64,000 nt of DNA from Escherichia phage REP2: the sequence record OQ174501.1; one strand, written 5' to 3'. This document shows, piece by piece, positions 26,525 to 60,259 of this stretch. Every line of letters begins with the position of its first letter. Within the stretch, counting starts at the first letter, position 1. A program made the translations under genes and the position numbers. The notes under the pieces were generated by a model. The model made no database searches. It saw nothing but the letters and a program-made list of their open reading frames with translations, and was not told the origin of the DNA.

Positions 26525-27055
26525 ATGTCGCAAGCACTGCAACAAATTTTTAACCAAGCAAATACAACTAACTTTGTAGTATCAATACCACATAGTAATA
26601 CTACATCTGCTTTTACTTTAAATGCTCAGTCAGTTCCTATTCCAGGAATTAGAATACCTGTTACTGATACCGTGACTGGGCCGTTTGGACTTGGTCGAGC
26701 ACAACGTCCAGGTGTTACATTTGAGTACGATCCACTCATCGTGAGATTTATAGTTGACGAAGAGCTTAAGTCGTGGATAGGAATGTATGAATGGATGCTA
26801 GGAACTAGTAACTATCTTACAGGCGAAAATACTGCCCAAAAAACAGGTCCTGAATACATTACGCTTTACATTTTAGATAATAGTAAAACTGAAATCGTGA
26901 TGTCAATAAATTTTTATAAGCCTTGGGTTTCTGACCTATCTGAAGTAGAATTTAGCTACACGGAAGATTCAGACCCGGCTTTAGTATGTACAGCAACGAT
27001 TCCTTACACCTATTTTCAAGTAGAAAAAGATGGTAAAATTATAGCAGAAGTTTAA
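26525..27055 (+). CDS. 3: tail completion / sheath stabiliser gp3
   Basis: 176 aa from internal ATG preceded by GAGGA; ORF-track start trimmed. Confidence 0.85.
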   Translation: MSQALQQIFNQANTTNFVVSIPHSNTTSAFTLNAQSVPIPGIRIPVTDTVTGPFGLGRAQRPGVTFEYDPLIVRFIVDEELKSWIGMYEWMLGTSNYLTGENTAQKTGPEYITLYILDNSKTEIVMSINFYKPWVSDLSEVEFSYTEDSDPALVCTATIPYTYFQVEKDGKIIAEV

Positions 27056-27104
27056 TGCTTCAGCTTTGTGTGTTATAATCTTAATTAAATTTGAGGAGAA
27101 ACAC

Positions 27105-27829
27105 ATGAAACTAATCTTTTTAAGCGGTGTAAAGCGTAGTGGAAAAGATACTACTGCTGATTTTATCATGAGTAATTATTCTGCAGTTAAATACCAACTT
27201 GCTGGTCCTATTAAGGATGCATTGGCTTATGCATGGGGAGTATTTGCAGCAAACACCGACTATCCTTGCTTAACTCGTAAAGAGTTTGAAGGAATTGACT
27301 ATGATCGTGAGACTAATTTAAATCTGACTAAATTAGAAGTAATCACGATTATGGAACAAGCATTTTGCTATCTTAATGGTAAAAGCCCAATTAAAGGTGT
27401 GTTTGTTTTTGATGACGAAGGAAAAGAATCAGTTAATTTCGTAGCATTTAACAAAATTACTGACGTTATAAATAATATTGAAGATCAATGGTCAGTCCGT
27501 CGTCTGATGCAAGCCCTAGGTACGGATTTGATTGTTAATAACTTCGACCGCATGTACTGGGTAAAATTATTTGCTTTAGATTATCTTGATAAATTTAACT
27601 CAGGTTATGATTATTATATCGTTCCTGATACCCGTCAAGATCATGAAATGGATGCGGCTAGGGCGATGGGTGCTACAGTAATTCATGTAGTTCGTCCTGG
27701 TCAAAAATCCAATGATACACATATTACAGAAGCTGGATTGCCAATTCGTGATGGCGATTTAGTAATTACAAACGATGGTTCTCTTGAAGAACTTTTTTCT
27801 AAAATTAAAAATACACTAAAGGTACTATA

Positions 27830-27830: not shown

Positions 27831-28527
<697 letters not shown>

Positions 28528-28535
<8 letters not shown>

Positions 28536-28557
28536 GCTGATGAGGTAGTGATACTAT
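28528..28557 (+). promoter_or_regulatory. T4-type early promoter
   Basis: GTTTAC-N18-TGATACTAT. Confidence 0.7.
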
Positions 28558-28587
28558 TATCTCATCAAAATTAATTAGGAAAATAAA

Positions 28588-28845
28588 ATGAAAACTTTCA
28601 AAGAGTTTACTACAAAAACTACTATCACTGAATCTTCCCACGGTATGGAAGTAAAGCTTGGAATGGCTTTAGCTGAAGCTGAGCGTCTTTTCTCTCGTAT
28701 TAAAGAACTTGCTGCTGCAGTAGATCCTTCATCTTTTAAAGGAGACCAAACGAAAGTTAAAGCACTTTTAGCATTATGCTCCGATGCAGGAGAAATTGCT
28801 AAAAATGGTTCTAAGATGAAAAAACGATTAGAAGATTTAAAATAA
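28588..28845 (+). CDS. internal-protein-like protein with CTS-like N-terminus
   Basis: 85 aa starting MKTFKEFTTK, resembling the T4 capsid-targeting sequence MKTYQEFIAE; own early promoter. Confidence 0.6.
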   Translation: MKTFKEFTTKTTITESSHGMEVKLGMALAEAERLFSRIKELAAAVDPSSFKGDQTKVKALLALCSDAGEIAKNGSKMKKRLEDLK

Positions 28846-28865
28846 TTTCACAAAGTTGTTTACAT
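28831..28865 (+). repeat. direct repeat, copy 2
   Basis: same 31-nt sequence as 28501-28535. Confidence 0.7.
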
Positions 28866-28887
28866 AGGGTTTTAGTTGTGATACTAT
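28858..28887 (+). promoter_or_regulatory. T4-type early promoter
   Basis: GTTTAC-N18-TGATACTAT. Confidence 0.7.
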
Positions 28888-28921
28888 TACCCTATCAAAA
28901 CAAAACCAAATGGAAATCAAA

Positions 28922-29155
28922 ATGAAAACTTACCAAGAATTTATTGCTGAAACTGCTGATGTAAAAGTTGAGTTTATTTACACTGGCAAGAAAGATAAAA
29001 TGGGTGAAATGCCTCATGGAGTTCTTCGTGATGCATTAGATAATTTCGGTCAACTCGCCGCAGAAGATTACGGTGATAAAATTGTTGTTACTGGTCCTGC
29101 TGCAGTTATTGAAAAATGGGCAGCAGAAAATAAATCAATTTTTCGTAAAAAATAA
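28922..29155 (+). CDS. internal protein with canonical CTS
   Basis: 77 aa starting exactly MKTYQEFIAE; own early promoter. Confidence 0.7.
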   Translation: MKTYQEFIAETADVKVEFIYTGKKDKMGEMPHGVLRDALDNFGQLAAEDYGDKIVVTGPAAVIEKWAAENKSIFRKK

Positions 29156-29185
29156 GTTTACTTTTAGATGGGGTAGTGATACTAT
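29156..29185 (+). promoter_or_regulatory. T4-type early promoter
   Basis: GTTTAC-N18-TGATACTAT, then leader CCCTATCAACTACTGAGGAG. Confidence 0.65.
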
Positions 29186-29213
29186 TACCCTATCAACTAC
29201 TGAGGAGAATAAA

Positions 29214-29399
29214 ATGAAACGTTGTGAATTAATTCGAAATGTTGCTATTGCAATTTCTGCTTCCGCTTTCAGTTTTTCAATGTTTGTTGGATTTATATGC
29301 GGATTATTGACTACGGCAGAAAATGTTTTTTCACTTGTAGTAGCATTTTTAATTGGTTTAATTGCTATTGTTATGGATAAAATTTCTAAAGGTGAATAA
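29214..29399 (+). CDS. small hydrophobic membrane protein
   Basis: 61 aa from ATG after RBS GAGGAG; two predicted TM segments. Confidence 0.5.
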   Translation: MKRCELIRNVAIAISASAFSFSMFVGFICGLLTTAENVFSLVVAFLIGLIAIVMDKISKGE

Positions 29400-30687: not shown

Positions 30688-30762
30688 GGCCCTGTAGCTG
30701 GAAGGTTCAAGCAAGCGACTCATAATCGCCAGATGGTGGTTCAATTCCACCCAGGGCCACCA
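30688..30762 (+). tRNA. tRNA-Ile/Met (CAU)
   Basis: anticodon loop CUCAUAA; by position the homologue of T4 tRNA-Ile. Confidence 0.65.
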
Positions 30763-31950: not shown

Positions 31951-32000
31951 CAAACACTTGCCTTAGCAGGTGGAACCCCGACAAGGTTGCCGCAAGGCTT

Positions 32001-32028
32001 AGCCCCGACCGAAAGGTTGGGGCTTTTT
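32001..32028 (+). terminator. rho-independent terminator (GAAA tetraloop)
   Basis: AGCCCCGACC-GAAA-GGTTGGGGCT 10-bp stem followed by TTTTT. Confidence 0.75.
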
Positions 32029-32030
32029 AG

Positions 32031-32038
32031 TATAAATA
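32031..32038 (+). promoter_or_regulatory. T4 late promoter TATAAATA
   Basis: exact TATAAATA about 37 nt upstream of the ORF at 32075. Confidence 0.5.
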
Positions 32039-32074
32039 AGTATATTAAAACCACGAATTAAAACAGGAAATAAG

Positions 32075-32548
32075 ATGAAATCATATGCTCAATTTTTAAA
32101 TGAAGCGGTGTTAAATGAAGCATCTAGCACTGAAATTCAAGCTGTTGCAAAAGCTGCCATTGCCGCGGGTAAATATTCCTATAAAGATGCTTCCGATGAA
32201 TCACGATTCCAATTTGCTCGTGATATGAAAGCCGAAGGATTTACAGGGAATGCAGTTAGTATGGCTTGGAAAAGTTTAGTTGCTACTGGAGCTGCTTTTG
32301 CAAAGGCTTCGGGTAAACCTGCTCCTAAAGCAGATCCTAAAGCTGCACAAGAAAAAAATATTGTTAAAGGAATTATCTCCAAATATGAAGCTATCCTTAA
32401 AGAGCTTTTAGTAATCAAAACTGAAGGCCAAAAGCTAGCTCGTGCTTATAGTTTCAAAGATAACCCACATGCTCACTCTCTTGAGTATGTTGAAGACATC
32501 CAAAAAATTATTAAAGACCGCATTTGGTCTGCTAAACAAATCAAATAA
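32075..32548 (+). CDS. internal-protein-like protein with CTS-like N-terminus
   Basis: 157 aa starting MKSYAQFLNEA; Ala/Lys-rich; late promoter upstream and terminator downstream. Confidence 0.55.
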   Translation: MKSYAQFLNEAVLNEASSTEIQAVAKAAIAAGKYSYKDASDESRFQFARDMKAEGFTGNAVSMAWKSLVATGAAFAKASGKPAPKADPKAAQEKNIVKGIISKYEAILKELLVIKTEGQKLARAYSFKDNPHAHSLEYVEDIQKIIKDRIWSAKQIK

Positions 32549-32555
32549 CATTCTT

Positions 32556-32583
32556 AGCCCTAGCCGAAAGGTTGGGGCTTTTT
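32556..32583 (+). terminator. rho-independent terminator (GAAA tetraloop)
   Basis: AGCCCTAGCC-GAAA-GGTTGGGGCT followed by TTTTT; near copy of the 32001 terminator. Confidence 0.75.
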
Positions 32584-32714
32584 GGTATCTAGGCCTTTCC
32601 AGGCCTCTCTAGACATCATTTAGTTTCTACCCTTTATAATATATTATCCTATCCTTTAATTGCCCCTCCCTGCCCTAGAATTCCCCAAAACTTTTTAAAT
32701 TTTTTTCACAAAAC

Positions 32715-32744
32715 TGTTTACATCCCTGTTCTTCCATGGTACTA
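32715..32744 (+). promoter_or_regulatory. T4-type early promoter
   Basis: GTTTAC-N18-TGGTACTAT, then conserved leader ACAACTATCAACTAC. Confidence 0.7.
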
Positions 32745-32788
32745 TACAACTATCAACTACTGATACAGAAAACAACTTGGAGAATGAA

Positions 32789-33052
32789 ATGGATAATTAC
32801 GGCGAACTGTTCAACTTCTTTATGAAATGTGTTTCAGAAGATTTTGGTCGTACAGTGAATGATATTAAAGTTATCGGTCCTGACCATCCGATGTTTGAAA
32901 CTTATGCAGTAATGGGTAATGAAGACGGTCAGTGGTATACTGTAAAGGTTGTGATTAACATGTTCACTGCTGAAGGTTATGTTAAACTGTCTTCTAAAGT
33001 TTACCATGATAACGATGAAATCGCAGAAGAATATTTCAATAATATGAAATAA
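32789..33052 (+). CDS. hypothetical protein
   Basis: 87 aa from ATG with RBS GGAGA; downstream of an early promoter. Confidence 0.55.
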   Translation: MDNYGELFNFFMKCVSEDFGRTVNDIKVIGPDHPMFETYAVMGNEDGQWYTVKVVINMFTAEGYVKLSSKVYHDNDEIAEEYFNNMK

Positions 33053-33341
33053 TTGTGTACAAACACCAAGGACGGTGTTATTATAGACTTATCAAAACAA
33101 ATACAGAAAACGGAGAAATAAATGACTACTTTAATTATTTGGTTTGACGAAAATGAAGAAACATACTGCGTGAACATTGGCGAAAGCCCAATGCCAGAAT
33201 TTGAATCTTCAGATAAAAACTCGGTTGTATCTTGGGCTGAAGGTTATAAAGCAGCAAAAGGCGATGTTGAAATAGTTTACAAACTATCCGGAGTATAATA
33301 CTCTCGTGGATTTTAAATCTTAATTAACCTAAGGAAATACT

Positions 33342-34943: not shown

Positions 34944-35287
34944 ATAAAGTCAAATATTCTCTTCCTGAGTCATTTTTAATTTTTGCTGTAGCGTTGGCTA
35001 CAGCTCTTGCGGGTAGTCTTTTTGGATTGTTAATTGACTGTCTTATTTTAAACATTGACGGCACAGTAAATATAATAGAAGTTTGGAGTGAACTTCGTTA
35101 TACTATAGCGATTTCATTATTTTCATTCTTTGGTACCATGTTATATTTTCATTATGATAATTTTAAAATAAATTGGCAAAGAAAAAAGGATTACAAAATA
35201 CAATTAAATGAATATAATAACTACATGTCTTATATTGAAAAAGAATCAATGGAAGAGTTTGTGAGTGATTGTAGGAAAATTAAATGA
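34925..35287 (+). CDS. small membrane protein, paralogue family member
   Basis: 120 aa, 2 TM helices, C-terminal FVSDCRKIK. Confidence 0.55.
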   Translation: MQKPKLNKVKYSLPESFLIFAVALATALAGSLFGLLIDCLILNIDGTVNIIEVWSELRYTIAISLFSFFGTMLYFHYDNFKINWQRKKDYKIQLNEYNNYMSYIEKESMEEFVSDCRKIK

Positions 35288-35772
35288 TTTTAAAAACTCG
35301 CTGGTATGATTTAGATGATGGGGACGATGGCATTTCAGTTGATAGAGTTGACTGGAGTGGCTGTTCCGAAGATATGAAAAAATTGTTAATTAGGGAGTTT
35401 AGAATGGGATATCAAGCAGCTAAGCCATCTACTGTAACAGATGATAAATTCGTGTGTATTCAAAATGGTCGTGCTAAGTTAACGAACGCTGATTGGTTCA
35501 CAGATAAGAAGGTTATTCTGTGGTATATTATTAGTTTTCCTGTGACATCATTTGTATTTTGCTTCTTTGGAGAAAGTCCAGTAGGCAGAACGGAAGATTG
35601 GATTCTTTTAATTATACTTGTTAATATTTTTACAGCAGCAGTACTATCAGGAATATGGTGCGTGTTCATTGAAATGCCATGGCGGTTACGTAGGCAGCAA
35701 AAGATTTTTGATGAAAAGAAATATACTCAAAATTTAAATAATTTTATCACTGAATGCAGGAAATTAAAATGA
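35284..35772 (+). CDS. small membrane protein, paralogue family member
   Basis: 162 aa, 2 TM helices, C-terminal FITECRKLK. Confidence 0.55.
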   Translation: MILKTRWYDLDDGDDGISVDRVDWSGCSEDMKKLLIREFRMGYQAAKPSTVTDDKFVCIQNGRAKLTNADWFTDKKVILWYIISFPVTSFVFCFFGESPVGRTEDWILLIILVNIFTAAVLSGIWCVFIEMPWRLRRQQKIFDEKKYTQNLNNFITECRKLK

Positions 35773-36208
35773 AAACATTATCAGCTGGTATTATCTTTAT
35801 GACAGAAGATAAAGATTTATTTATGGGACGAGTTACTGGTTCTCGTAAGCCTGGAATGATGGCACATCGCTGGATATTCCAAAGGGGCGTGTAGAAAATT
35901 CTGATTTAAGCGCATTAGATGCAGCACGAAGAGAATGCTCAGAAGAGACTGGTTTTAACAATTATAATCCAGACCTTCTAGAAGACCTAGGTGTATTTAA
36001 ATATTCTAGTAATAAAGACTTACAGTTATTTTATTATACGATTCCAGTAGAGCATGAGATGTTCAGAAATTGCCGTTGTGAGTCTTATTTTGAAAATAAA
36101 GATGGCGTTATGATTCCAGAGATGGATGCTTTTGCTCTTATTCCTCGTACTCAGTGGCAATATGTGATGGGTCCTTCACTTTACCGAATAATGAACAGCC
36201 TCTTTTAA
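35769..36208 (+). pseudogene. nudE: Nudix hydrolase nudE (e.1), frame disrupted
   Basis: ATG frame reads MKTLSAGIIFMTEDKDLFMGRVTGSRKPGMMAHRW then stops at about 35892; the -1 frame continues DIPKGRVENSDLSALDAARRECSEETGF... (Nudix box) to a stop at about 36206; a single missing G in CTGG-GAT would join them. Confidence 0.6.
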
Positions 36209-36739
<531 letters not shown>

Positions 36740-36743
36740 AGTT

Positions 36744-36773
36744 GTTTACTTTCTTCTAGAATTGTGATAGTAT
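36744..36773 (+). promoter_or_regulatory. T4-type early promoter
   Basis: GTTTAC-N18-TGATAGTAT upstream of denV. Confidence 0.65.
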
Positions 36774-36798
36774 ATTCACAGTTACTTGGAGGGATAAA

Positions 36799-37215
36799 AT
36801 GACTCGTATTAATTTGACTTTAGTATCTGAACTTGCTGATCAACATTTAATCGCAGAATACCGTGAATTGCCACGCGTTTTTGGTATAATTCGTAAGCAT
36901 GTGGCAAACGGTAAGCGCGTTAAAGATTTTAAAATATCTTCCGAGTTTATTTTAGGTTCTGGTCATGTTACGTTCTTTTACGATAAGTTAGAATTTTTGC
37001 GAAAGCGTCAATTAGACATTATAACGGAATGCTTAAAACGCGGGTTCAGTATAAAAGATACTGAAGTTCCTGACATCAGCGATATTCCAATAGAATGGAA
37101 AAATGATTATAATCCATGCAAATCAGCTATTAAATTGAGTCAACAACGACTTGATGAAAAAATTTTAATGAAACCACACTGGTATAAGTATTACGGTAAA
37201 AATATTTACATTTAA
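36799..37215 (+). CDS. denV: endonuclease V (pyrimidine-dimer DNA glycosylase) DenV
   Basis: 138 aa [29 protein letters not shown]..., matches remembered T4 DenV. Confidence 0.95.
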
Positions 37216-39554: not shown

Positions 39555-39832
39555 TGGCTCAATTAAGCGCAGGGTTTGGTTATGAGTATTATACTGCCCC
39601 TCGTCGTGTATCTGTTGCTCCTAAGAAAATTCAAAGTCTTGATGATTTCCAGGAAGTAGTTCGTAACGCTTTCCAGGACTATGCACGTTATCTTAAAGAA
39701 GATTCACAGGACTGTCTCGAAGAAGATGAAATTGCTTACTATGAGCAGCGTCTTGAACAGCTCAAAAATCTACATGAGGTTCGTGCAGAAGTTTCAAAGT
39801 CTATGAATAAATTGATTAGATTTAAAGAATAA
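39554..39832 (+). CDS. hypothetical protein
   Basis: 92 aa from the first ATG. Confidence 0.5.
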
Positions 39833-39834
39833 CT

Positions 39835-39864
39835 GTTTACTTTTCCTCTTGACTGTGGTATAAT
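39835..39864 (+). promoter_or_regulatory. T4-type early promoter
   Basis: GTTTAC-N18-TGGTATAAT upstream of regB. Confidence 0.75.
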
Positions 39865-39891
39865 TTTTCTATCAGTTAAGAGGAGAATAAC

Positions 39892-40353
39892 ATGACTATC
39901 AATACAGAAGTTTTTATCCGTCGAAATAAGCTTCGTCGTCACTTTGAGTCGGAGTTTCGTCAAATTAACAATGAGATTCGTGAGGCATCAAAAGCAGCAG
40001 GAGTCTCATCGTTTCATCTAAAATATTCTCAACATCTTCTTGATCGTGCAATTCAACGGGAGATTGATGAGACATATGTTTTTGAATTATTCCATAAAAT
40101 AAAAGACCATGTTTTAGAAGTTAATGAATTCCTGAGTATGCCTCCGCGTCCTGACATTGACGAGGATTTTATTGATGGGGTTGAATATCGTCCTGGACGT
40201 TTAGAAATCACAGATGGAAATCTTTGGCTTGGATTTACAGTTTGTAAACCTAACGCGAAGTTCAAAGACCCGTCACTTCAATGTAGGATGGCAATTATCA
40301 ACAGTCGTCGTTTACCAGGAAAGGCTTCTAAAGCAGTAATTAAAACTCAATGA
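39892..40353 (+). CDS. regB: site-specific endoribonuclease RegB
   Basis: 153 aa MTINTEVFIRRNKLRRHFESEFRQINNEIREASK..., matches remembered T4 RegB. Confidence 0.95.
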   Translation: MTINTEVFIRRNKLRRHFESEFRQINNEIREASKAAGVSSFHLKYSQHLLDRAIQREIDETYVFELFHKIKDHVLEVNEFLSMPPRPDIDEDFIDGVEYRPGRLEITDGNLWLGFTVCKPNAKFKDPSLQCRMAIINSRRLPGKASKAVIKTQ

Positions 40354-43994: not shown

Positions 43995-44017
43995 AGTCTC
44001 CTTCGGGAGACTTTTTT
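43995..44017 (+). terminator. rho-independent terminator
   Basis: AGTCTCC-ttcg-GGAGACT followed by TTTTTT. Confidence 0.75.
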
Positions 44018-44027
44018 CATTTTACCG

Positions 44028-44057
44028 GTTTACTTTCCATTTGAGCTGTGATACTAT
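44028..44057 (+). promoter_or_regulatory. T4-type early promoter
   Basis: GTTTAC-N18-TGATACTAT, then ACAACTATC leader. Confidence 0.7.
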
Positions 44058-44085
44058 ACAACTATCGGATAAAGAGGAGAACATC

Positions 44086-44274
44086 ATGAAAATTGAAGCA
44101 CTTAATCAAGAAGGAAATATCTACGTCATCATTAATGGTGATTTTTTCGTCGACATGGATGAAGTTACTAGTGAAGAACTTGTAGAACTTCTTAAGAAAC
44201 GTTATGATATGTGTGATGAAGCTGCAACTCATATGGCGTGTGCAATATTCTCTCTTTCATATGTGGTGGAATAA
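44086..44274 (+). CDS. hypothetical protein
   Basis: 62 aa from ATG after RBS GAGGAG. Confidence 0.5.
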
Positions 44275-44674: not shown

Positions 44675-44839
44675 AAAGCAGATGTTTTTAATGAAGCTAA
44701 TTGAAGAATATGCTAATGCAGTTTCTGACTATGAGTATTCTGCTAGGGAAAGAGGTACAGCTTTCGCAAAGGAAGAAATGAAAATCATGGTTGATGCTCA
44801 CACAAAGCTTCAGAATTTTATTGAAAACGTCATTTAATG

Positions 44840-44869
44840 GTTTACAAGTTGGCAAGGTTATGATATAGT
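44840..44869 (+). promoter_or_regulatory. T4-type early promoter
   Basis: GTTTAC-N18-TGATATAGT. Confidence 0.6.
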
Positions 44870-45028
44870 AATCTTGTCAACTGCCAAGGAGAAGAGAATG
44901 AAAGTTTTGTTTGTTGTGTATGTGATGATTCAATATAATTATCCAATGTTTACTTATAATCTGGTGAACAACATTATTGATATTATTCAAAGGAGTGTGT
45001 AATTGTGGGTGAGTCGAAGAGAATCAAT

Positions 45029-45568: not shown

Positions 45569-46090
45569 ATGTTTATTTCAAGTGGAAGTGGTTTAATTCG
45601 TGTTGAATTTAAAAATGACATCTTCCTTATTCAAGGAGATGATATTATTAAAATGAGTTATGATGAAATTAAGAAAATTTGTAATGCTCTTGAAAGTCAT
45701 GGAAAAGTGAACGCTGTTATTGATATTGGTGATTTATGGGTGACACTTTATGAAGTATCCGAAGGATTTAATATTGAAGATGAAAACAACATCTTAGCTA
45801 TTGATAAAAGAAGCGATTTGTTTGATGTGTTAAAAGTTTATGAACAGTCAAACGGTGGAAGAAAAGCTGTATTGATTTATCAAAAACCACATTCATGTGG
45901 AACTGCTTCAATCATTTCAGATATTGAAGATGAAACTGATACTTATATGTGTGTTTTAAAAGCTGGTGGTGACCGTCATCCGGATTTTATTTCTATTCGT
46001 CAAAACAATGGAGAAATTTCATTATCAAAATCAGAAGCTGAAGCTATGATTAAGTATTTAACAACTGTTACACCTTCAATGAAAGGATAA
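45569..46090 (+). CDS. hypothetical protein, paralogue B
   Basis: 173 aa; C-terminus KSEAEAMIKYLTTVTPSMKG matches paralogue A. Confidence 0.55.
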   Translation: MFISSGSGLIRVEFKNDIFLIQGDDIIKMSYDEIKKICNALESHGKVNAVIDIGDLWVTLYEVSEGFNIEDENNILAIDKRSDLFDVLKVYEQSNGGRKAVLIYQKPHSCGTASIISDIEDETDTYMCVLKAGGDRHPDFISIRQNNGEISLSKSEAEAMIKYLTTVTPSMKG

Positions 46091-46092
46091 TT

Positions 46093-46554
46093 ATGATTAT
46101 TAATGAAAACTCTTGGCACTATAAATTATTCAAACTGTTTAACGACGAATGGAAACGACCTAAGACACTGTGTGCATACTTTTGGTCTATTGTTATCCCT
46201 ACATTTTTCGTTTCTTTTTTCGGATGTACTATACTCGCAGGTCTAACTATTATCTGTGCAGAAATCATACAGAAATGGCTTATTTTTGGTAGTTTATGGA
46301 CTCTTCTTCCATCGGCATTTATACTTGCACTTTTGGTTGTTTTACTTATTATCGGTTCATTTGTTATTCCTGCACATTTGCGTGAAAAATATAAAGATTA
46401 TAAATGGAAAAAGGATTATGCTTTACACGTAGAAAATATTGATAGGGCGTATAAAGGTTTACCTCCTATTCAACCAAAGAAATCGGTTATCGTTGAATTT
46501 TTAAAAGCTCGTAAAGCTAAAGTATGTCCTGTTATTGAATATAAGGCTGAATGA
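46093..46554 (+). CDS. membrane protein
   Basis: 153 aa with 2-3 hydrophobic helices. Confidence 0.55.
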   Translation: MIINENSWHYKLFKLFNDEWKRPKTLCAYFWSIVIPTFFVSFFGCTILAGLTIICAEIIQKWLIFGSLWTLLPSAFILALLVVLLIIGSFVIPAHLREKYKDYKWKKDYALHVENIDRAYKGLPPIQPKKSVIVEFLKARKAKVCPVIEYKAE

Positions 46555-47564
46555 TGAAAACAGTAATGAAAAGCTATTTTGGTAGTCATCTTTATGGAAC
46601 TTCTACCCCAGAATCTGATGTAGATTTTAAAGAAATCTTTGTTCCTCCTGCTCGCGATATTCTTATCGGAAATGTTAAAGAGCATATGAGTAAAAACACT
46701 AACAACACATCATCTAAAAACACTAAAGATGATATTGACCATGAACTATACAGTCTTAAATATTTCTTTAAATTAGCAGCAGATGGTGAAACTGTAGCGT
46801 TAGATATGCTTCACACTCCACCTGAACTAGTGGTTAAATCTGATTTGCCTGATGTGTGGAAGTTTATTCAAGACAACCGTTCTCGTTTTTATACGACTAA
46901 CATGAAATCCTATTTAGGATATGTTCGCAAGCAAGCTTCTAAATACGGTGTCAAGGGTTCTCGTTTGGCTGCATTACGCGATGTATTGAAAGTAGTTAAT
47001 CAAATCCCCGAGCAATGGGTTGATTACCAAGAAGACGGTTCCATTAAGCAGCGTCGTACTAAAGTTGAAGATATTAAGCATCGTCTTCCAGAAAACGAAT
47101 TCTGTGAATGGGTGTTCCATAATCATGAGAAAACAGGTCCACAAACGTTCTACACAGTGTTGGGTCGTAAATATCAGACAACGCTTTCTCTTATTGAGCT
47201 TAAGCAGTCACTGAACAAATTAGATGCTGAATATGGTGAACGTGCTCGTAAGGCCGAAGCCAATGAAGGTATTGACTGGAAAGCTCTGAGTCATGCTTGT
47301 CGTGGTGGACTTCAACTATTGGAAATTTACAAAACTGGTGACTTGGTTTATCCACTCCAAGATGCTCCATTTATTCTCGACGTGAAGTTGGGTAAACATC
47401 CATTTAAAACAGTTCAAGAGTTTTTGGAAGATGTGGTCGATCAAGTAGAAGCAGCATCTACTGAAGCTTCTAAGAATGGTATGCCTAAAACAGTAGATAT
47501 GAGCTTTTGGAATAATTTCCTCGAACAGGTTTATCTTGAAAACCACCGAAGTTATTATAAATGA
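46551..47564 (+). CDS. nucleotidyltransferase-fold protein (Pol-beta/CD-NTase-like motif)
   Basis: 337 aa; N-terminal GSHLYGTSTPESDVDF (GS-x10-DxD) with a downstream acidic residue (DDIDHE). Confidence 0.55.
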   Translation: MMKTVMKSYFGSHLYGTSTPESDVDFKEIFVPPARDILIGNVKEHMSKNTNNTSSKNTKDDIDHELYSLKYFFKLAADGETVALDMLHTPPELVVKSDLPDVWKFIQDNRSRFYTTNMKSYLGYVRKQASKYGVKGSRLAALRDVLKVVNQIPEQWVDYQEDGSIKQRRTKVEDIKHRLPENEFCEWVFHNHEKTGPQTFYTVLGRKYQTTLSLIELKQSLNKLDAEYGERARKAEANEGIDWKALSHACRGGLQLLEIYKTGDLVYPLQDAPFILDVKLGKHPFKTVQEFLEDVVDQVEAASTEASKNGMPKTVDMSFWNNFLEQVYLENHRSYYK

Positions 47565-47565
47565 T

Positions 47566-47592
47566 AGGGAGCCTTCGGGCTCCCTTTTTTTA
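47566..47592 (+). terminator. rho-independent terminator
   Basis: AGGGAGCC-ttcg-GGCTCCCT followed by TTTTTTT. Confidence 0.8.
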
Positions 47593-47616
47593 TTTCAAAA
47601 ATTTTTTCACAAAATT

Positions 47617-47646
47617 GTTTACAAGCATAAAGCTTTATGGTACTAT
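47617..47646 (+). promoter_or_regulatory. T4-type early promoter
   Basis: GTTTAC-N18-TGGTACTAT, then ACAACTATCAACTGA leader. Confidence 0.75.
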
Positions 47647-47680
47647 ACAACTATCAACTGATACGGATTTGGAGAATAAA

Positions 47681-48649
47681 ATGAAAACTGTAACTATCAA
47701 TAAGGGTATCTACTTCGGTAAAGAAATCTCTGGAACTTTTGAGCTCTTAGGCGAATGGTTCCCAGATAATGCTCCAGTAGATGCACAAGGAGATGGTAAA
47801 GTTTTTGTTGAAATTGACGGTAAACGTCGCGGTGTTTGGGTTTACAAATCAGACATTTCATATGATGGTGTAAAAGTTGAAGAAGTTAAAGAAACGTATG
47901 AAGATATGAAAACCCGCATTAATAAAAGATTTAATGTTATGGGAATGATGACGAATGGTATTATTAACGGAAACATTCGTTCATTAATTATCTCTGGTGC
48001 GGCAGGCATTGGTAAAACGTATTCTTTAGATAAAGCTTTAAATAAAGCAAATGATATTGGATACATTGAATATAAAAGCATTAATGGTAAAATCTCTGGT
48101 ATTGGTCTTTATGAACAGCTTTGGAATAATCGTGAAGAGAATTCTGTCCTTTTGATTGATGATGTGGATGTTTTCTCTGATATGGACATTCTTAATCTTC
48201 TGAAAGCTGCTCTGGACACCGGAGAGACCCGTAAAGTCTGCTGGAGCACTGCGTCTTCTTACTTAGAAGAAAAAGGCATTGAGCGTGAGTTTGAATTTAA
48301 AGGAACGATTGTTTTTATCACAAACGTTGACATTGACCGCGAATTAGACCGTGGTACTAAACTTGCTCCACATTTACAAGCATTAGTGTCCCGCTCGGTT
48401 TATTTGGATTTGGGTGTTCACACTAATGAAGAAATTATGGTCAGGGTTGAAGATGTTATTCTTTCAACTGACATGATGCAAAAGCGCGGTCTTTCTGATG
48501 AAGAAACTTATAAAGCATTATCATGGATGAAAGTTAATGTTAATCGTTTACGCAATGTTTCACTGCGTACTGCTCTTTATCTTGCTGACTTTATTATGAC
48601 CGACAAAAACGGTTGGGAAGAAATTGCTGAGGTTACTCTTCTGAAATAA
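47681..48649 (+). CDS. P-loop (AAA-like) ATPase
   Basis: 322 aa from ATG after promoter and RBS; Walker A GAAGIGKT, Walker B LLIDDVD. Confidence 0.6.
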   Translation: MKTVTINKGIYFGKEISGTFELLGEWFPDNAPVDAQGDGKVFVEIDGKRRGVWVYKSDISYDGVKVEEVKETYEDMKTRINKRFNVMGMMTNGIINGNIRSLIISGAAGIGKTYSLDKALNKANDIGYIEYKSINGKISGIGLYEQLWNNREENSVLLIDDVDVFSDMDILNLLKAALDTGETRKVCWSTASSYLEEKGIEREFEFKGTIVFITNVDIDRELDRGTKLAPHLQALVSRSVYLDLGVHTNEEIMVRVEDVILSTDMMQKRGLSDEETYKALSWMKVNVNRLRNVSLRTALYLADFIMTDKNGWEEIAEVTLLK

Positions 48650-48747: not shown

Positions 48748-49053
48748 ATGATGTTATACTCAAAGGCTCGTGAAATTTACGAAACTAAAATTAAAGAAGC
48801 AGTATTTCAGTTCGCAACAACGATGCGATGGACAAATGATTGGGAGTATTCAAAAAATCATAAGAAGCCCATGGTGACAAGAAAGGCTCATATGTTAGTG
48901 TTAATAGACCGTGAGCAGATTAAAGCCCGAGAAGCCCTCCAGAATCATAAAAAGGCTGCCTTTGAATGGTTTATGGATAACACCGCTCCTGAGACTAAGA
49001 AAGCAGTGAGCGCGTGGTTCAGTGGAAAAAATTGTGAAAGAAGTTTCTTTTAG
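48748..49053 (+). CDS. hypothetical protein
   Basis: about 101 aa, RBS GGAGG. Confidence 0.5.
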   Translation: MMLYSKAREIYETKIKEAVFQFATTMRWTNDWEYSKNHKKPMVTRKAHMLVLIDREQIKAREALQNHKKAAFEWFMDNTAPETKKAVSAWFSGKNCERSFF

Positions 49054-49055
49054 TG

Positions 49056-49085
49056 GTTTACAAGACCGTTCCTCTGTGGTACTAT
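49056..49085 (+). promoter_or_regulatory. T4-type early promoter
   Basis: GTTTAC-N18-TGGTACTAT, then ACAACTATCAACTAC leader. Confidence 0.75.
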
Positions 49086-49113
49086 ACAACTATCAACTAC
49101 GGAGGAACAGAAA

Positions 49114-49641
49114 ATGAACGCTAAAGATATTTTCAACTTGGTAAATTACAACGATGGTAAATTTAAATCTGAAGCACAAAGCAAGTTCTTTAATGACATC
49201 TCAATCGGAGGTGAAATCACTGTTGATGGAGGACAAATTTACAAATCCCGTTGGAATTGGATCGTTATTATCGATGAGATTGGTATTGTAGAAATTTACA
49301 AGAATACGAATAAAAATCGTACATTACACTGGTCTCGTGATACTAACGAACAGTACAAAAAGGATAAAGCATCTAAATTATCTCGTGTAACTCAAGAAGA
49401 TATTGAGTTCATCAAGAAAGATATTTTGATGTATGATAACTTAATTGCTGAAGAGCAAGTTGTTATTGATAAATTTGACGAGATTAAAGCTTCTCGTGAA
49501 ATTCCTGATTTTATGAAAGAATCAGTAAATGAACGATATACTCTCATTTCAGAGCGTATTGAAACTTACAAAAAGCAAAGAGCTGAACGCCAAAATACTC
49601 TTCGGAAGTTTGAAGAACGGTTAAAGACGGTACTCGCATAA
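49114..49641 (+). CDS. hypothetical protein
   Basis: 175 aa, charged C-terminal helix. Confidence 0.55.
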   Translation: MNAKDIFNLVNYNDGKFKSEAQSKFFNDISIGGEITVDGGQIYKSRWNWIVIIDEIGIVEIYKNTNKNRTLHWSRDTNEQYKKDKASKLSRVTQEDIEFIKKDILMYDNLIAEEQVVIDKFDEIKASREIPDFMKESVNERYTLISERIETYKKQRAERQNTLRKFEERLKTVLA

Positions 49642-51008: not shown

Positions 51009-52028
51009 ATGAAAACTCGTTCTCAAATTGAAGATATGGTTCGTAATGCCAGCTATACTCGTGATGTTATGACATTTTTGTGCCAAAATAATTTAGACCC
51101 TGATAAAGTTAATCGTGATATTCACTTTAAGTATATGAATAGCAGTGAATGGTTACGTCATTTTAATGAAGCAGGGTATATTACTCAAATGACTGCTCGT
51201 GAGCAGCTCACCGATTTCTGTAAAACTATTGATTATAAAAATCCTCTATTTGTTCAAGGCGTTGGTCAAAGTAAGGTCGATTTATCATCTGGATTTTTCA
51301 ATCCAAATCATTATCGTATTGAATGGAGATTTATTGCTCTATTCCGTAGACAATTAAAGCAAATTTTGTCTACTGCTAGTCGATTAAAAGGTTCTGATAT
51401 TAACTTAAAGAATCTTAAATTTGATGGTTATACTCTTCAGATGGAAGTAAGACCATTAAAAGAAAATAATAGAACTGCACGAATTAGCTTTAAACCTAAT
51501 ACAAAAAATTCTCTTTCAATTTGTGAATGCCTTAAATCGCAGTTGACAGAAGCATTTAAGTATATGGATGTTGTTGCTGCTGTTCAGTCTAAGATTTCAC
51601 AGCATTTCGAACGATTTAAATTAGACACAACAGCGTATGAACTTGATATGATCGTTTCATTTAAATATGAATTTTTGAGAAAAGATGAAGTCCCGCAAGA
51701 GAAAAAGCAGGAAGTGCAAGATAACTTAAATTTATCCAATTACTTATCAAACGATCCTAAATTTTGGATGTATAGTTCAGGTAATAAAGATGCATGGAAA
51801 TTTAATAAAGTGAATTTTCTTCCTATTGAAAATCCGAGTCTTAAACCTGTTGAAAAATGGCATGCAGATGCGATTGAGAAGTCTATCAAGGCAGTAGATG
51901 ATGAACTCGTTAAAGCAACTAATGAAGTGCTAGAAGCTGAAAAGATGTTGGAAAAAGCTCAAGAAAAAGTCAAAAATCTTACGAAGCAACGTTCTAAACT
52001 GAACAATGCACTAAATGCACTGAACTAG
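51009..52028 (+). CDS. paralogue family protein 2 (coiled-coil tail)
   Basis: 339 aa; MKTRSQIED start; RFIALFRRQLKQILSTASRLKG; C-terminal coiled coil. Confidence 0.6.
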   Translation: MKTRSQIEDMVRNASYTRDVMTFLCQNNLDPDKVNRDIHFKYMNSSEWLRHFNEAGYITQMTAREQLTDFCKTIDYKNPLFVQGVGQSKVDLSSGFFNPNHYRIEWRFIALFRRQLKQILSTASRLKGSDINLKNLKFDGYTLQMEVRPLKENNRTARISFKPNTKNSLSICECLKSQLTEAFKYMDVVAAVQSKISQHFERFKLDTTAYELDMIVSFKYEFLRKDEVPQEKKQEVQDNLNLSNYLSNDPKFWMYSSGNKDAWKFNKVNFLPIENPSLKPVEKWHADAIEKSIKAVDDELVKATNEVLEAEKMLEKAQEKVKNLTKQRSKLNNALNALN

Positions 52029-52057
52029 TTTACATTGCCACAAGGATGTGGTATAAT
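52028..52057 (+). promoter_or_regulatory. T4-type early promoter
   Basis: GTTTAC-N18-TGGTATAAT. Confidence 0.75.
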
Positions 52058-52085
52058 GTTCTTACTTTCTACTGAGGAGATTATT

Positions 52086-56712: not shown

Positions 56713-58526
56713 CAATTGAAAAAGAAATTGAAGGATTGATTCATAAAACTAATAAAGACCTTTTAAACGAGAATGCTAATAAAGATTCTCGTGTTTTTCC
56801 AACTCAACGGGACCTTATGGCTGGTATTGTGTCTAAACACATTGCCAAAAATATGGTCCCGTCTTTTATTATGAAAGCGCATGAAAGCGGAATTATTCAT
56901 TTCCATGATATTGATTATTCCCCTGCTCTTCCATTTACTAATTGCTGTTTAGTAGATTTAAAAGGAATGCTTGAGAACGGATTTAAGCTTGGTAATGCAC
57001 AGATTGAAACTCCTAAATCAATTGGCGTTGCTACTGCAATTATGGCACAAATTACTGCGCAAGTTGCTTCCCATCAATATGGCGGAACGACTTTTGCTAA
57101 TGTAGATAAAGTACTTTCTCCTTATGTTAAACGCACCTATGCAAAACATATTGAGGATGCAGAAAAATGGCAAATCGCTGATGCGTTAAATTATGCTCAA
57201 TCTAAAACAGAAAAAGATGTATACGATGCATTCCAAGCTTATGAATATGAAGTAAATACTCTCTTTAGTTCAAACGGACAAACACCTTTTGTAACAATTA
57301 CATTTGGTACAGGAACTGACTGGACTGAACGAATGATTCAGAAAGCAATTCTGAAAAATCGTATTAAAGGTCTCGGTCGTGATGGGATAACTCCTATTTT
57401 CCCTAAGCTTGTTATGTTCGTTGAAGAAGGTGTTAATCTTTATAAAGACGATCCGAACTATGATATTAAACTGCTTGCTCTAGAGTGCGCAAGCAAAAGA
57501 ATGTATCCTGATATTATTTCAGCTAAGAACAATAAAGCTATCACTGGCTCATCTATTCCTGTTTCTCCAATGGGTTGTCGTAGTTTCTTGAGCGTATGGA
57601 AAGATTCGACTGGCAATGAAATTCTTGATGGACGTAATAATCTCGGTGTTGTAACACTGAATCTTCCTCGTATCGCATTAGATTCTTATATTGGAACACA
57701 GTTCAATGAACAGAAATTTATCGAATTGTTCAATGAACGAATGGATTTATGTTTTGAAGCTTTGATGTGTAGAATTAGTTCCTTAAAAGGAGTTAAAGCG
57801 ACTGTTGCTCCTATTCTTTACCAAGAAGGTGCATTCGGGGTTCGTCTTAAACCTGATGACGACATAATTGAGTTATTTAAAAACGGTAGAAGTTCAGTGT
57901 CTTTAGGATACATTGGTATTCATGAATTGAATATTCTTGTCGGTCGTGATATTGGACAAGAAATTTTAACTAAAATGAATGCTCGTCTTAAACAGTGGAC
58001 TGAAAGAACTGGGTTTGCTTTTAGTTTATATTCGACTCCTGCTGAAAACCTTTGTTATCGCTTCTGTAAACTCGATACAGAAAAATATGGAAGCGTAAAA
58101 GATGTTACTGATAAAGGCTGGTACACTAACAGTTTCCACGTTTCAGTAGAAGAAAATGTTACTCCGTTTGAAAAGATTTCTCGTGAAGCGCCATATCATT
58201 TCATTGCGACAGGTGGTCACATTTCTTATGTTGAACTTCCTGATATGAAAAATAACTTAAAAGGTCTTGAGGCTGTATGGGATTATGCCGCACAACATTT
58301 AGATTATTTTGGTGTTAATATGCCAGTAGATAAATGTTTTACATGTGGAAGTACCCATGAAATGACTCCTACTGAAAACGGATTTGTTTGTTCTATTTGT
58401 GGAGAAACTGATCCTAAAAAGATGAATACAATAAGAAGAACATGTGGTTATTTGGGAAATCCGAACGAGCGCGGATTTAATCTCGGTAAAAATAAAGAAA
58501 TCATGCATAGGGTTAAACACCAATGA
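56709..58526 (+). CDS. nrdD: anaerobic ribonucleotide reductase NrdD
   Basis: 605 aa; C-terminal glycyl-radical motif RRTCGYLG and Zn-ribbon CxxC; uninterrupted. Confidence 0.95.
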   Translation: MTIEKEIEGLIHKTNKDLLNENANKDSRVFPTQRDLMAGIVSKHIAKNMVPSFIMKAHESGIIHFHDIDYSPALPFTNCCLVDLKGMLENGFKLGNAQIETPKSIGVATAIMAQITAQVASHQYGGTTFANVDKVLSPYVKRTYAKHIEDAEKWQIADALNYAQSKTEKDVYDAFQAYEYEVNTLFSSNGQTPFVTITFGTGTDWTERMIQKAILKNRIKGLGRDGITPIFPKLVMFVEEGVNLYKDDPNYDIKLLALECASKRMYPDIISAKNNKAITGSSIPVSPMGCRSFLSVWKDSTGNEILDGRNNLGVVTLNLPRIALDSYIGTQFNEQKFIELFNERMDLCFEALMCRISSLKGVKATVAPILYQEGAFGVRLKPDDDIIELFKNGRSSVSLGYIGIHELNILVGRDIGQEILTKMNARLKQWTERTGFAFSLYSTPAENLCYRFCKLDTEKYGSVKDVTDKGWYTNSFHVSVEENVTPFEKISREAPYHFIATGGHISYVELPDMKNNLKGLEAVWDYAAQHLDYFGVNMPVDKCFTCGSTHEMTPTENGFVCSICGETDPKKMNTIRRTCGYLGNPNERGFNLGKNKEIMHRVKHQ

Positions 58527-58993
58527 ATTACGATAGATTTTATCCCTGTGATTTTGTGAATGGCCCTGGATGCAGGGTCGTTCTTTTCGTTACAGGTTGT
58601 TTGCATAAATGTGAAGGGTGTTATAATAAATCAACATGGAATGCTAGAAATGGTGTTCCATTCACTGGTGAAACACTAGAACAATTAATTGAATGTTTGA
58701 ATAATGATTATATAGAAGGATTGACTATAACCGGAGGTGACCCTCTCTATCCTGATAACAGAGACGTGATTCACTCTGTGGTTCAAACTATTAAAAATCT
58801 TTATCCCAATAAAAGCATTTGGTTGTGGACAGGATATAAGTTTGAAGATATTAAACAACTAGAAATGCTTAAATATGTTGATGTTATTATTGATGGGAAG
58901 TATGAGAAAAATCTTCCGACCAAAAAGCTGTGGCGAGGATCAGATAATCAGCGACTTTGGTCAAATACCGATGGGGTGTGGAAACATGATTAA
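58523..58993 (+). CDS. nrdG: anaerobic RNR activating protein NrdG
   Basis: 156 aa; radical-SAM CLHKCEGC. Confidence 0.9.
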   Translation: MNYDRFYPCDFVNGPGCRVVLFVTGCLHKCEGCYNKSTWNARNGVPFTGETLEQLIECLNNDYIEGLTITGGDPLYPDNRDVIHSVVQTIKNLYPNKSIWLWTGYKFEDIKQLEMLKYVDVIIDGKYEKNLPTKKLWRGSDNQRLWSNTDGVWKHD

Positions 58994-59956: not shown

Positions 59957-60030
59957 CTCACATTCTGTATATTACCATTCTAAGCTATCGTTCCCTTCTT
60001 ATCATTCCCTAAAATAATTTTCACAAAGTT

Positions 60031-60060
60031 GTTTACAAGAAGTTCAAACCGTGGTATTAT
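60031..60060 (+). promoter_or_regulatory. T4-type early promoter
   Basis: TTCACAAAGTTGTTTAC-N18-TGGTATTAT. Confidence 0.7.
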
Positions 60061-60259
60061 TAACATATGAATTACCTTTGAGGAATTGATATGGTTGATA
60101 AAGAGATTAAAATTGACCAGTACTATCGTGTTAACGGACATATCGTTATTGTTACAGCAGTCGATGATTTAGATGTTCATTATACTGTGATTAAATGGAA
60201 CAAACATATGATTTGTGATCGTGCTGTATTTAGTTCAGTTGCTAAGGAAATTAAACTCC

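Follow-up and report, generated by a model that had tools for sequence, protein, structure and literature searches.

The cassette between nrdC.11 and nrdC.10

The stretch of DNA analysed here, hereafter the window, covers 64,000 nucleotides of Escherichia phage REP2 (OQ174501.1) and is that of a Tequatrovirus, i.e., a T4-like phage. Its bases 26000-50000 show 100% identity with Escherichia phage REP3 (OQ174502.1) in the database, where hundreds of further Tequatrovirus matches reach 95-97%. The window runs opposite to the T4 map and the early genes are therefore found on the + strand; gene names were transferred from the REP3 and T4 annotations. The site of interest separates nrdC.11 from nrdC.10, whose product shows at residues ~86-203 weak, sub-cut-off Pfam matches to P-loop AAA and STAND NTPases (AAA_14, E=5.8e-5; nSTAND3, E=4.9e-4). 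The anatomy of this boundary, as directly observed here, is the following:

46554-47564, nrdC.11 (REP3 annotation), 5' neighbour of the 47617 site
47566-47592, + strand, predicted intrinsic terminator of nrdC.11, stem-loop AGGGAGCC-ttcg-GGCTCCCT with a T7 run (seven T)
47593-47616, + strand, A/T-rich UP-like block upstream of the -35, ending with TTCACAAAATT (47606-47616)
47617-47646, + strand, core early promoter: -35 GTTTAC (47617-47622), 18-nt spacer, -10 TACTAT (47641-47646)
47647-47661, + strand, ACAACTATCAACTGA, named 'leader' in the initial annotation: discriminator ACAACT (47647-47652), then ATCAACTGA
47662-47683, + strand, remaining 5' UTR with Shine-Dalgarno GGAG (47671-47674) and the nrdC.10 ATG (47681-47683)
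47681-48649, nrdC.10 (322 aa), 3' neighbour of the 47617 site

The terminator call (8 pairs of which 6 are GC, a loop of 4 and the T-run) concerns the stem-loop part of a composite cassette; the orthologues of this stem-loop carry the annotation 'terminator' in phages Lutter and fPS-90, and in these phages orthologous sites bear the labels early promoter and terminator. The spacer ends with the TGG of an extended -10 (47638-47640), and the 5' UTR contains TTGGAGAATAAAATGAAAACT, a tract that is repeated elsewhere (repeat families D5 and D19). From established T4 knowledge we infer promoter activity and the position of +1, and on this footing 47617-47680 is best described as the early promoter of nrdC.10. 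Canonical sigma-70 spacing predicts the A at 47653 as +1, while a literature search on the mapping of T4 transcription start sites yielded nothing usable. With this +1, the description of the downstream motif as a transcribed leader would hold for ATCAACTAC (+1 to +9) and not for ACAACT, which would be an untranscribed discriminator. Likewise, the formula GTTTAC-N18-TGnTAyTAT proposed in the initial annotation does designate a promoter but is loosely written, as the 18 nt run from GTTTAC to the -10 hexamer and include the TGn. A perfect 12-nt palindrome, ATAAAGCTTTAT, occupies 47628-47639 within the spacer and is kept in those relatives that have the same cassette.

Fourteen predicted early promoters of one design

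Allowing at most one mismatch, GTTTAC-N18-TAnnAT has 31 matches in the window against 8.7 expected, a number that no shuffle reached, and the exact pattern with TGn is found at 12 sites, none of them on the - strand or outside 28.5-60 kb. A generic sigma-70 scan gave no excess (73 sites vs 73.1 expected; 86 vs 79.9): the T4-specific consensus alone stands out and the generic pattern is uninformative. The 12 exact sites and 2 near-exact ones make up the set of 14 promoters considered hereafter. Every member reads on the + strand and lies at 27-60 kb; positions 1-26 kb, occupied by late genes, have no cassette. They stand in the orientation of early transcription upstream of the internal-protein (ip) genes, e.8, denV, regB, mobD.5, nrdC.10, nrdC.8 and nrdC.4, among others. 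Besides the promoter at 47617, the set comprises:

27005-27107, + strand, weaker cassette before gene 1, GTTTAA at 27050, TGTTATAAT
28483-28623, + strand, cassette before the first internal-protein gene, GTTTAC at 28528, UP-like block, hairpin around the -10, Shine-Dalgarno, ATG at 28588
28813-28957, + strand, cassette before the second internal-protein gene, GTTTAC at 28858, start at 28922, MKTYQEF N-terminal codons
29111-29216, + strand, cassette before the trna.4 homologue, GTTTAC at 29156, ATG at 29214
32671-32791, + strand, cassette before e.8, GTTTAC at 32716, exact ACAACTATCAACTAC at 32746, ATG at 32789 (family D2)
33010-33124, + strand, cassette before a 58-aa ORF, GTGTAC at 33055
36699-36801, + strand, cassette before denV, GTTTAC at 36744, ATG at 36799
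39790-39894, + strand, regB promoter cassette, GTTTAC at 39835, spacer pairing with leader and Shine-Dalgarno (-23.6 kcal/mol)
43995-44088, + strand, terminator (43995-44012 and T-run) and promoter before the mobD.5 homologue, GTTTAC at 44028, of the leader ACAACTATC only
44795-44900, + strand, cassette with GTTTAC at 44840, -10 TATAGT, hairpin around the -10 (-22.6 kcal/mol)
49011-49116, + strand, cassette before nrdC.8, GTTTAC at 49056, exact ACAACTATCAACTAC at 49086, ATG at 49114, spacer-Shine-Dalgarno pairing (-22.0 kcal/mol)
51983-52058, + strand, cassette before nrdC.4, GTTTAC at 52028, -10 TATAAT
59986-60093, + strand, cassette before the 55.6 homologue, TTCACAAAGTT and GTTTAC at 60031 (family D1)

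The 14 promoters align in one fixed register, in which columns 20-22 (GTG/TGn) and the A at -4 exceed 99.9% of the null, and the A at -40 together with columns of the CTATCAAC..T region around +1 exceed 99.9% of the small-sample null; upstream, their consensus reads aaa.aaatttca.aaA.tt. The cassettes have the A/T-rich block upstream and the Shine-Dalgarno and start codon at their 3' end (family D5). An independent, unbiased repeat search puts them at the top of the dispersed direct repeats by size (D1, 71 nt in four copies; D2, 77 nt in three), followed in rank by the RBS/start motif D5, the internal-protein N-terminal codons D7 and the terminator repeat D8. Pairs of cassettes are 62-83% identical over about 70-77 nt, with exact common tracts of 21-32 nt. 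The two internal-protein genes have in common, besides the promoter, their first ~12 codons (MKT.., 28578-28623 and 28912-28957), which are probably the capsid-targeting sequence and which would carry recombination homology into the coding region.

Two further motifs had been singled out in the initial annotation and both proved real, lying 0-3 nt from where it had put them and far above chance. The block preceding the -35, TTCACAAARTT followed by GTTTAC, has five matches against 0.00 expected, at 28517, 28847, 32705 (one mismatch), 47606 and 60020; the positions previously given were 2-3 nt too high. The leader does recur downstream of 32715, 44028, 47617 and 49056, to a varying extent: exact copies of ACAACTATCAACTAC lie at 32746 and 49086, 13/15 positions agree at 47647, and at 44058 the likeness is limited to the first 9 nt; three matches with 3 mismatches elsewhere are at chance level. 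CTATCAA is no special mark of these four promoters. TAYTAT-N4-CTATCAA has 6 matches vs 0.6 expected, and since the columns of the +1 region exceed the null across all 14 promoters, CTATCAA is general to the early promoters of this phage and common to most of the set. Sub-types are ACAACT.. at 32716, 44028, 47617 and 49056 and TACCCT.. at 28858 and 29156, and TTCACAAARTT marks a sub-type of five promoters. Both TTCACAAARTT and ACAACTATCAACTAC are variants inside the T4 early consensus.

We aligned the window with nine relatives (T4, T2, RB51, RB10, fPS-90, VIPECOOM01, ECO07P5, KIT06 and IME537). The conservation pattern directly observed in this alignment ranks the -35 first (99.7% identity), followed by the -10 (99.0%), the TTCACAAARTT zone (98.2%) and +1..+9 (98.0%), while the discriminator (94.9%) and spacer (92.9%) stay close to or below the background of 95.2%. 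Such a profile is what would be expected with selection on RNA polymerase contacts and on the start region.

Complementarity between the promoter spacer and the discriminator or leader of the same cassette was seen in about 8-9 of the 14 (pairing windows 27050-27110, 28528-28600, 28858-28900, 29156-29200, 36744-36800, 39835-39890, 44840-44885 and 49056-49110), and an RNA reading through from upstream would therefore hold the -10 box in a hairpin loop. Own spacers and leaders fold to a sum of -210 kcal/mol, compared with -152 +/- 11 for chimeras (p<=5e-5) and -141.5 for the antisense strand, with G-U pairs in the stems. The stems differ between cassettes, spacer and leader co-vary among the paralogous cassettes, and the effect was weakly replicated on 8 other cassettes of relatives (p=0.016). 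At 36744, 39835 and 49056 the 3' arm covers Shine-Dalgarno bases. The cassette at 47617 is devoid of a spacer-leader stem and has the canonical terminator upstream instead; upstream terminator hairpins are found at both 47617 and 44028. A structured leader element at 47617 was considered and rejected (-6.3 kcal/mol, worse than chimeras).

Gene differences among relatives

The structural comparison with the nine relatives gave 56 unique differences, i.e., 112 endpoints. Two of them left hybrid cassettes, which are direct observations. T4 and RB51 miss the gene at 28922-29155 and retain one cassette, the upstream part of which is that of 28858 and the downstream part that of 29156, the switch lying within the common 21 nt GTGATACTATTACCCTATCAA. 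In ECO07P5, where the gene at 28588-28845 is missing, the cassette is a 28528x28858 hybrid with the switch within the common 32 nt GATTTAAAATAATTTCACAAAGTTGTTTACAT. In both hybrids the crossover falls exactly in the longest common exact tract. Further cassettes recur as breakpoints: three different replacements have their left breakpoint in the one at 33055, the denV cassette at 36744 is an end point of five different events, and one swap relative to T4 and KIT06 ends at 28621, within the internal-protein N-terminal codons. Two regions deserve a separate description:

47566-47690, nrdC.11/nrdC.10 junction (loci L003, L004, L005, L007, L010, L012-L014)
31998-32588, + strand, ORF module: ORF 32075-32548 between two 36-nt terminator repeats, CTTAGCCC..CCGAAAGGTTGGGGCTTTTT (family D8)

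At least four alleles of the nrdC.11/nrdC.10 junction occur among Tequatroviruses, bounded by parts of the cassette: no insert; ORFs of 49 aa and 87 aa, the latter a DUF4031 ORF; an ORF of 66 aa; and one of 161 aa with its own promoter and terminator. A Pfam search of the inserted ORFs found DUF4031 for one and nothing else, and in T2 a 68-bp stretch comprising terminator, UP-like block and -35 is duplicated on the two sides of the insert. A synthetic 47617x49056 hybrid, which would delete nrdC.10 and nrdC.9, was searched in 50,697 phage records and was covered to >=80% in 0 of the 614 matching records.

Other repeats than cassettes are involved as well. The 520-bp module 32033-32554 is missing in T4, T2, RB10 and KIT06 with the junction inside the terminator repeat, and its ORF 32075-32548 (157 aa) has no Pfam match; three other phages have a 667-bp insertion at the second copy of this terminator repeat. 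T2 and ECO07P5 have lost the e.2 homologue (35284-35772) by a deletion between two ~30-nt copies of an RBS/stop-start motif, tgNAGGAAAtTAAAaTGA (positions 35257-35287 and 35743-35780), so that translational coupling signals, too, act as short homologies for recombination. About 10 of the 56 differences are insertions of homing endonucleases or introns, and the window is free of the homing endonuclease genes and the intron that T4 and other relatives have at 30707, 45587-46550, 48630, 56712, 57244, 58501-58543 and 63313; segB, mobD, a seg-like gene after nrdC.10, I-TevII in nrdD, mobC/segD and mobB are present in T4 or other relatives and missing here. The cassettes are one of several drivers of gene-content change, beside homing endonucleases, terminator repeats and RBS/start repeats.

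Recombination between cassettes, alternative readings and known elements

We consider it very probable that 47566-47683 is the boundary of a T4-type early transcription unit and one of 14 direct-repeat cassettes that occasionally recombine. The nrdC.11 transcript would be ended by the intrinsic terminator at 47566-47592, after which a very strong promoter for host sigma-70 of the T4 early class, with its UP-like block, GTTTAC, extended -10 TGnTAyTAT and conserved +1 region, would start nrdC.10 from a short unstructured leader with GGAG. The thirteen further copies of this design would serve the other early genes that they precede in the window, and their similarity may come mainly from common contacts with host RNA polymerase and ribosome; in addition, the ACAACT.. 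and TACCCT.. sub-families look copied from one another. Because the cassettes are direct repeats with exact tracts of 21-32 nt, the recombination machinery of the phage, as known from T4, would occasionally cross over between them; such a crossover would delete, insert or swap the intervening genes and leave every gene with a working promoter. In T4 experimental evolution, deletions and amplifications arise readily through short homologies. The hybrid cassettes and junction alleles directly support the idea of the initial annotation that these repeats provide homology for gene shuffling, and the sequences indicate that cassette-mediated exchange certainly happens; the word 'illegitimate', used there for the recombination, is less apt, as the exchange appears to depend on short homology. 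The small genes adjoining the cassettes are indeed of unknown or accessory function, as had been remarked, and counter-defence roles have been reported for ipIII and nrdC.5.

How far the cassettes promote recombination is a more delicate matter, as selection for viable junctions alone could place surviving breakpoints at gene boundaries. In that case the cassettes would be promoters only, alike by functional constraint, associated with breakpoints by survivorship and with no raised rate of recombination. A cassette is touched by 18 of the 56 differences, compared with 4.2 expected at random placement (0 of 5000 simulations reached 18), and the expectation that breakpoints fall in cassettes is upheld to this extent and by the two hybrid cassettes. 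Yet 102 of the 112 endpoints lie at gene junctions with or without a cassette, the junctions carrying an event are 7 of 14 with a cassette and 35 of 78 without (Fisher p=0.47), and half of the cassettes (7/14) are invariant among the nine relatives; the 47617x49056 recombinant that exchange would predict was, as mentioned above, not found among the matching records. Counted as distinct events, 25 fall in the 14 cassette junctions and 59 in the 78 others, a 2.3-fold difference (label permutation p=0.014 vs all junctions), but this excess vanishes once the comparison is confined to the 32 junctions whose intergenic spacer measures >=40 nt (p=0.25). What speaks against pure survivorship is the position of both hybrid crossovers in the longest exact tracts, the use of cassette repeats as flanking homology by 6 of the 12 indels flanked by direct repeats, the 2.3-fold difference itself and the experimental finding of mini-circles between such cassettes in RB49/phi1 (PMC2839356). 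Survivorship of viable junctions is accordingly a partial alternative, which as a full account we hold to be possible but doubtful, and in the nine-genome sample it is not demonstrated that cassettes are hotter than other intergenic spacers.

A dedicated machinery might also be imagined, the cassette being the target of a site-specific recombinase or DNA-binding protein, for example one recognising the stem-loop, and as such a genuine mobile element comparable to integron attC sites, a speculation raised by Arbiol et al. 2010 (PMC2839356) and to which the location of some junctions at terminator stem-loops (32028/32553, 47633/47566) lends some colour. No recombinase gene is associated with the cassettes, however, and the crossovers are scattered over the UP/-35 tract, the -10/+1 tract, the leader, the SD/ATG and the T-run of the terminator, and this scatter fits homology-guided exchange and not a fixed cut site, which makes the idea highly improbable in our eyes. 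Somewhat less remote, but still improbable, is the proposal that ACAACTATCAACTAC is a cis-acting RNA leader element acting on stability, translation or 5'-end chemistry separately from promoter function. The conservation of +1..+9 above background and the identity of the motif within a sub-family whose spacers differ would suit it. Its first six bases, however, lie upstream of the predicted start, the leaders of 47617, 32716 and 44028 form no stable structure on folding, and an Rfam search found tRNAs only and nothing at the cassettes. Moreover, CTATCAA occurs with varied flanks in most early promoters, as expected of a start-site or discriminator preference, and the consensus as published already includes a C preference at -3..-1 (PMC1524935). 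An early promoter cassette that occasionally recombines through short homology is therefore the reading that we retain.

All elements of this reading have precedents. The T4 early consensus of Nolan et al. 2006 (PMC1524935) has GTTTAC at -36..-31, an A-rich stretch at -40..-44 and GT-rich sequence before -12 in addition to the C at -3..-1, and according to Hinton 2010 (PMC2988021) T4 early promoters are of the UP/-35/TGn/-10 kind and have 'additional regions of consensus'; in the account of that review, they were also treated by Liebig & Rueger 1989, Wilkens & Rueger 1996 and Miller et al. 2003. The window promoters share with T4 early promoters GTTTAC, the UP-like region, the extended -10, TAnnAT and the C before +1, are orthologous to them in position at the ip genes, e.8, denV, regB, mobD.5, nrdC.10, nrdC.8 and nrdC.4, and differ from them in nothing substantive.

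As for the composite, Arbiol et al. 2010 (PMC2839356) described the PeSL (promoter-early stem-loop), which consists of a terminator or stem-loop, an A/T-rich block, an early promoter, a Shine-Dalgarno and a start, recurs many times ahead of small accessory ORFs in variable regions, and occurs in chimeric copies at indel junctions. The cassettes of the window are the same intergenic composite, likewise in many copies before small ORFs of hyperplastic early regions and likewise chimeric at the junctions of indels that distinguish close relatives. Comeau et al. 2014 (PMC4122927) extended PeSLs to the T4/PST pair with the consensus TTTACW-N17-TAYWAT, which is the consensus of the window. PeSLs of RB49/phi1 use near-perfect TTGACA/TATAAT and polyG/polyC stems, and Arbiol et al. 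therefore call the T-even elements analogues, not homologues; the detection of mini-circles concerns RB49/phi1 only, and for the window the enrichment over other intergenic DNA is not significant. Repoila et al. 1994 are credited by both papers with the same observation at T-even internal-protein loci and, as far as these citations describe their work, it covers the IP loci only. There the likeness is close: the cassettes at 28528, 28858 and 29156 flank swapped IP genes, different phages having different IP genes between the same flanks, and the homology runs into the MKT.. codons. The window pattern adds nrdC.10, e.8, denV and others, as Comeau et al. 2014 did for T4/PST. The pattern thus matches the T4 early consensus and the PeSL model and is already known; for a T4-type genome such a feature is commonplace and well understood.

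The hairpins were at one time regarded by us as a new observation; this was abandoned, as stems between the -35 and -10 or over the -10, with G-T pairs, belong to the PeSL description, where they are read as attenuators (Arbiol et al. 2010, PMC2839356), and those of the window similarly lie upstream of or overlap the -10, with G-T pairs. It is tempting to hypothesize, even if we judge it unlikely, that the hairpins enclosing the -10 serve as read-through insulators: an RNA started upstream would hide the RBS or be attenuated, and an RNA started at the promoter would be translated. Translation control by a promoter inside a hairpin is known in T4 for e, soc, 49 and I-TevI (Uzan & Miller 2010, PMC3014915). 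At 36744, 39835 and 49056, as in those genes, the 5' arm precedes the start site and the Shine-Dalgarno is overlain by the 3' arm, and for this reason read-through RNA would hide the RBS and promoter-started RNA would not. The promoters embedded in the T4 hairpins are late or middle ones, in contrast to the early promoters of the window, for which the effect on translation is a prediction. Only this translational role for early promoters would be new. If the insulator reading were true, each cassette would be an autonomous, portable expression unit, the co-variation of spacer and leader between paralogous cassettes would be explained, and early promoters would follow the logic known from the late promoters that lie within hairpins at T4 e, soc and 49.

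Our analysis brings no new principle beyond the published PeSL model and adds a caution, namely that in nine genomes cassettes are not demonstrably hotter than intergenic spacers. For this window the cassettes are mainly an aid to annotation, marking 14 early transcription units and the variable gene junctions. For T4-like phages in general, repeated promoter-terminator cassettes help to explain how accessory genes are gained, lost and swapped without breaking the expression of their neighbours.
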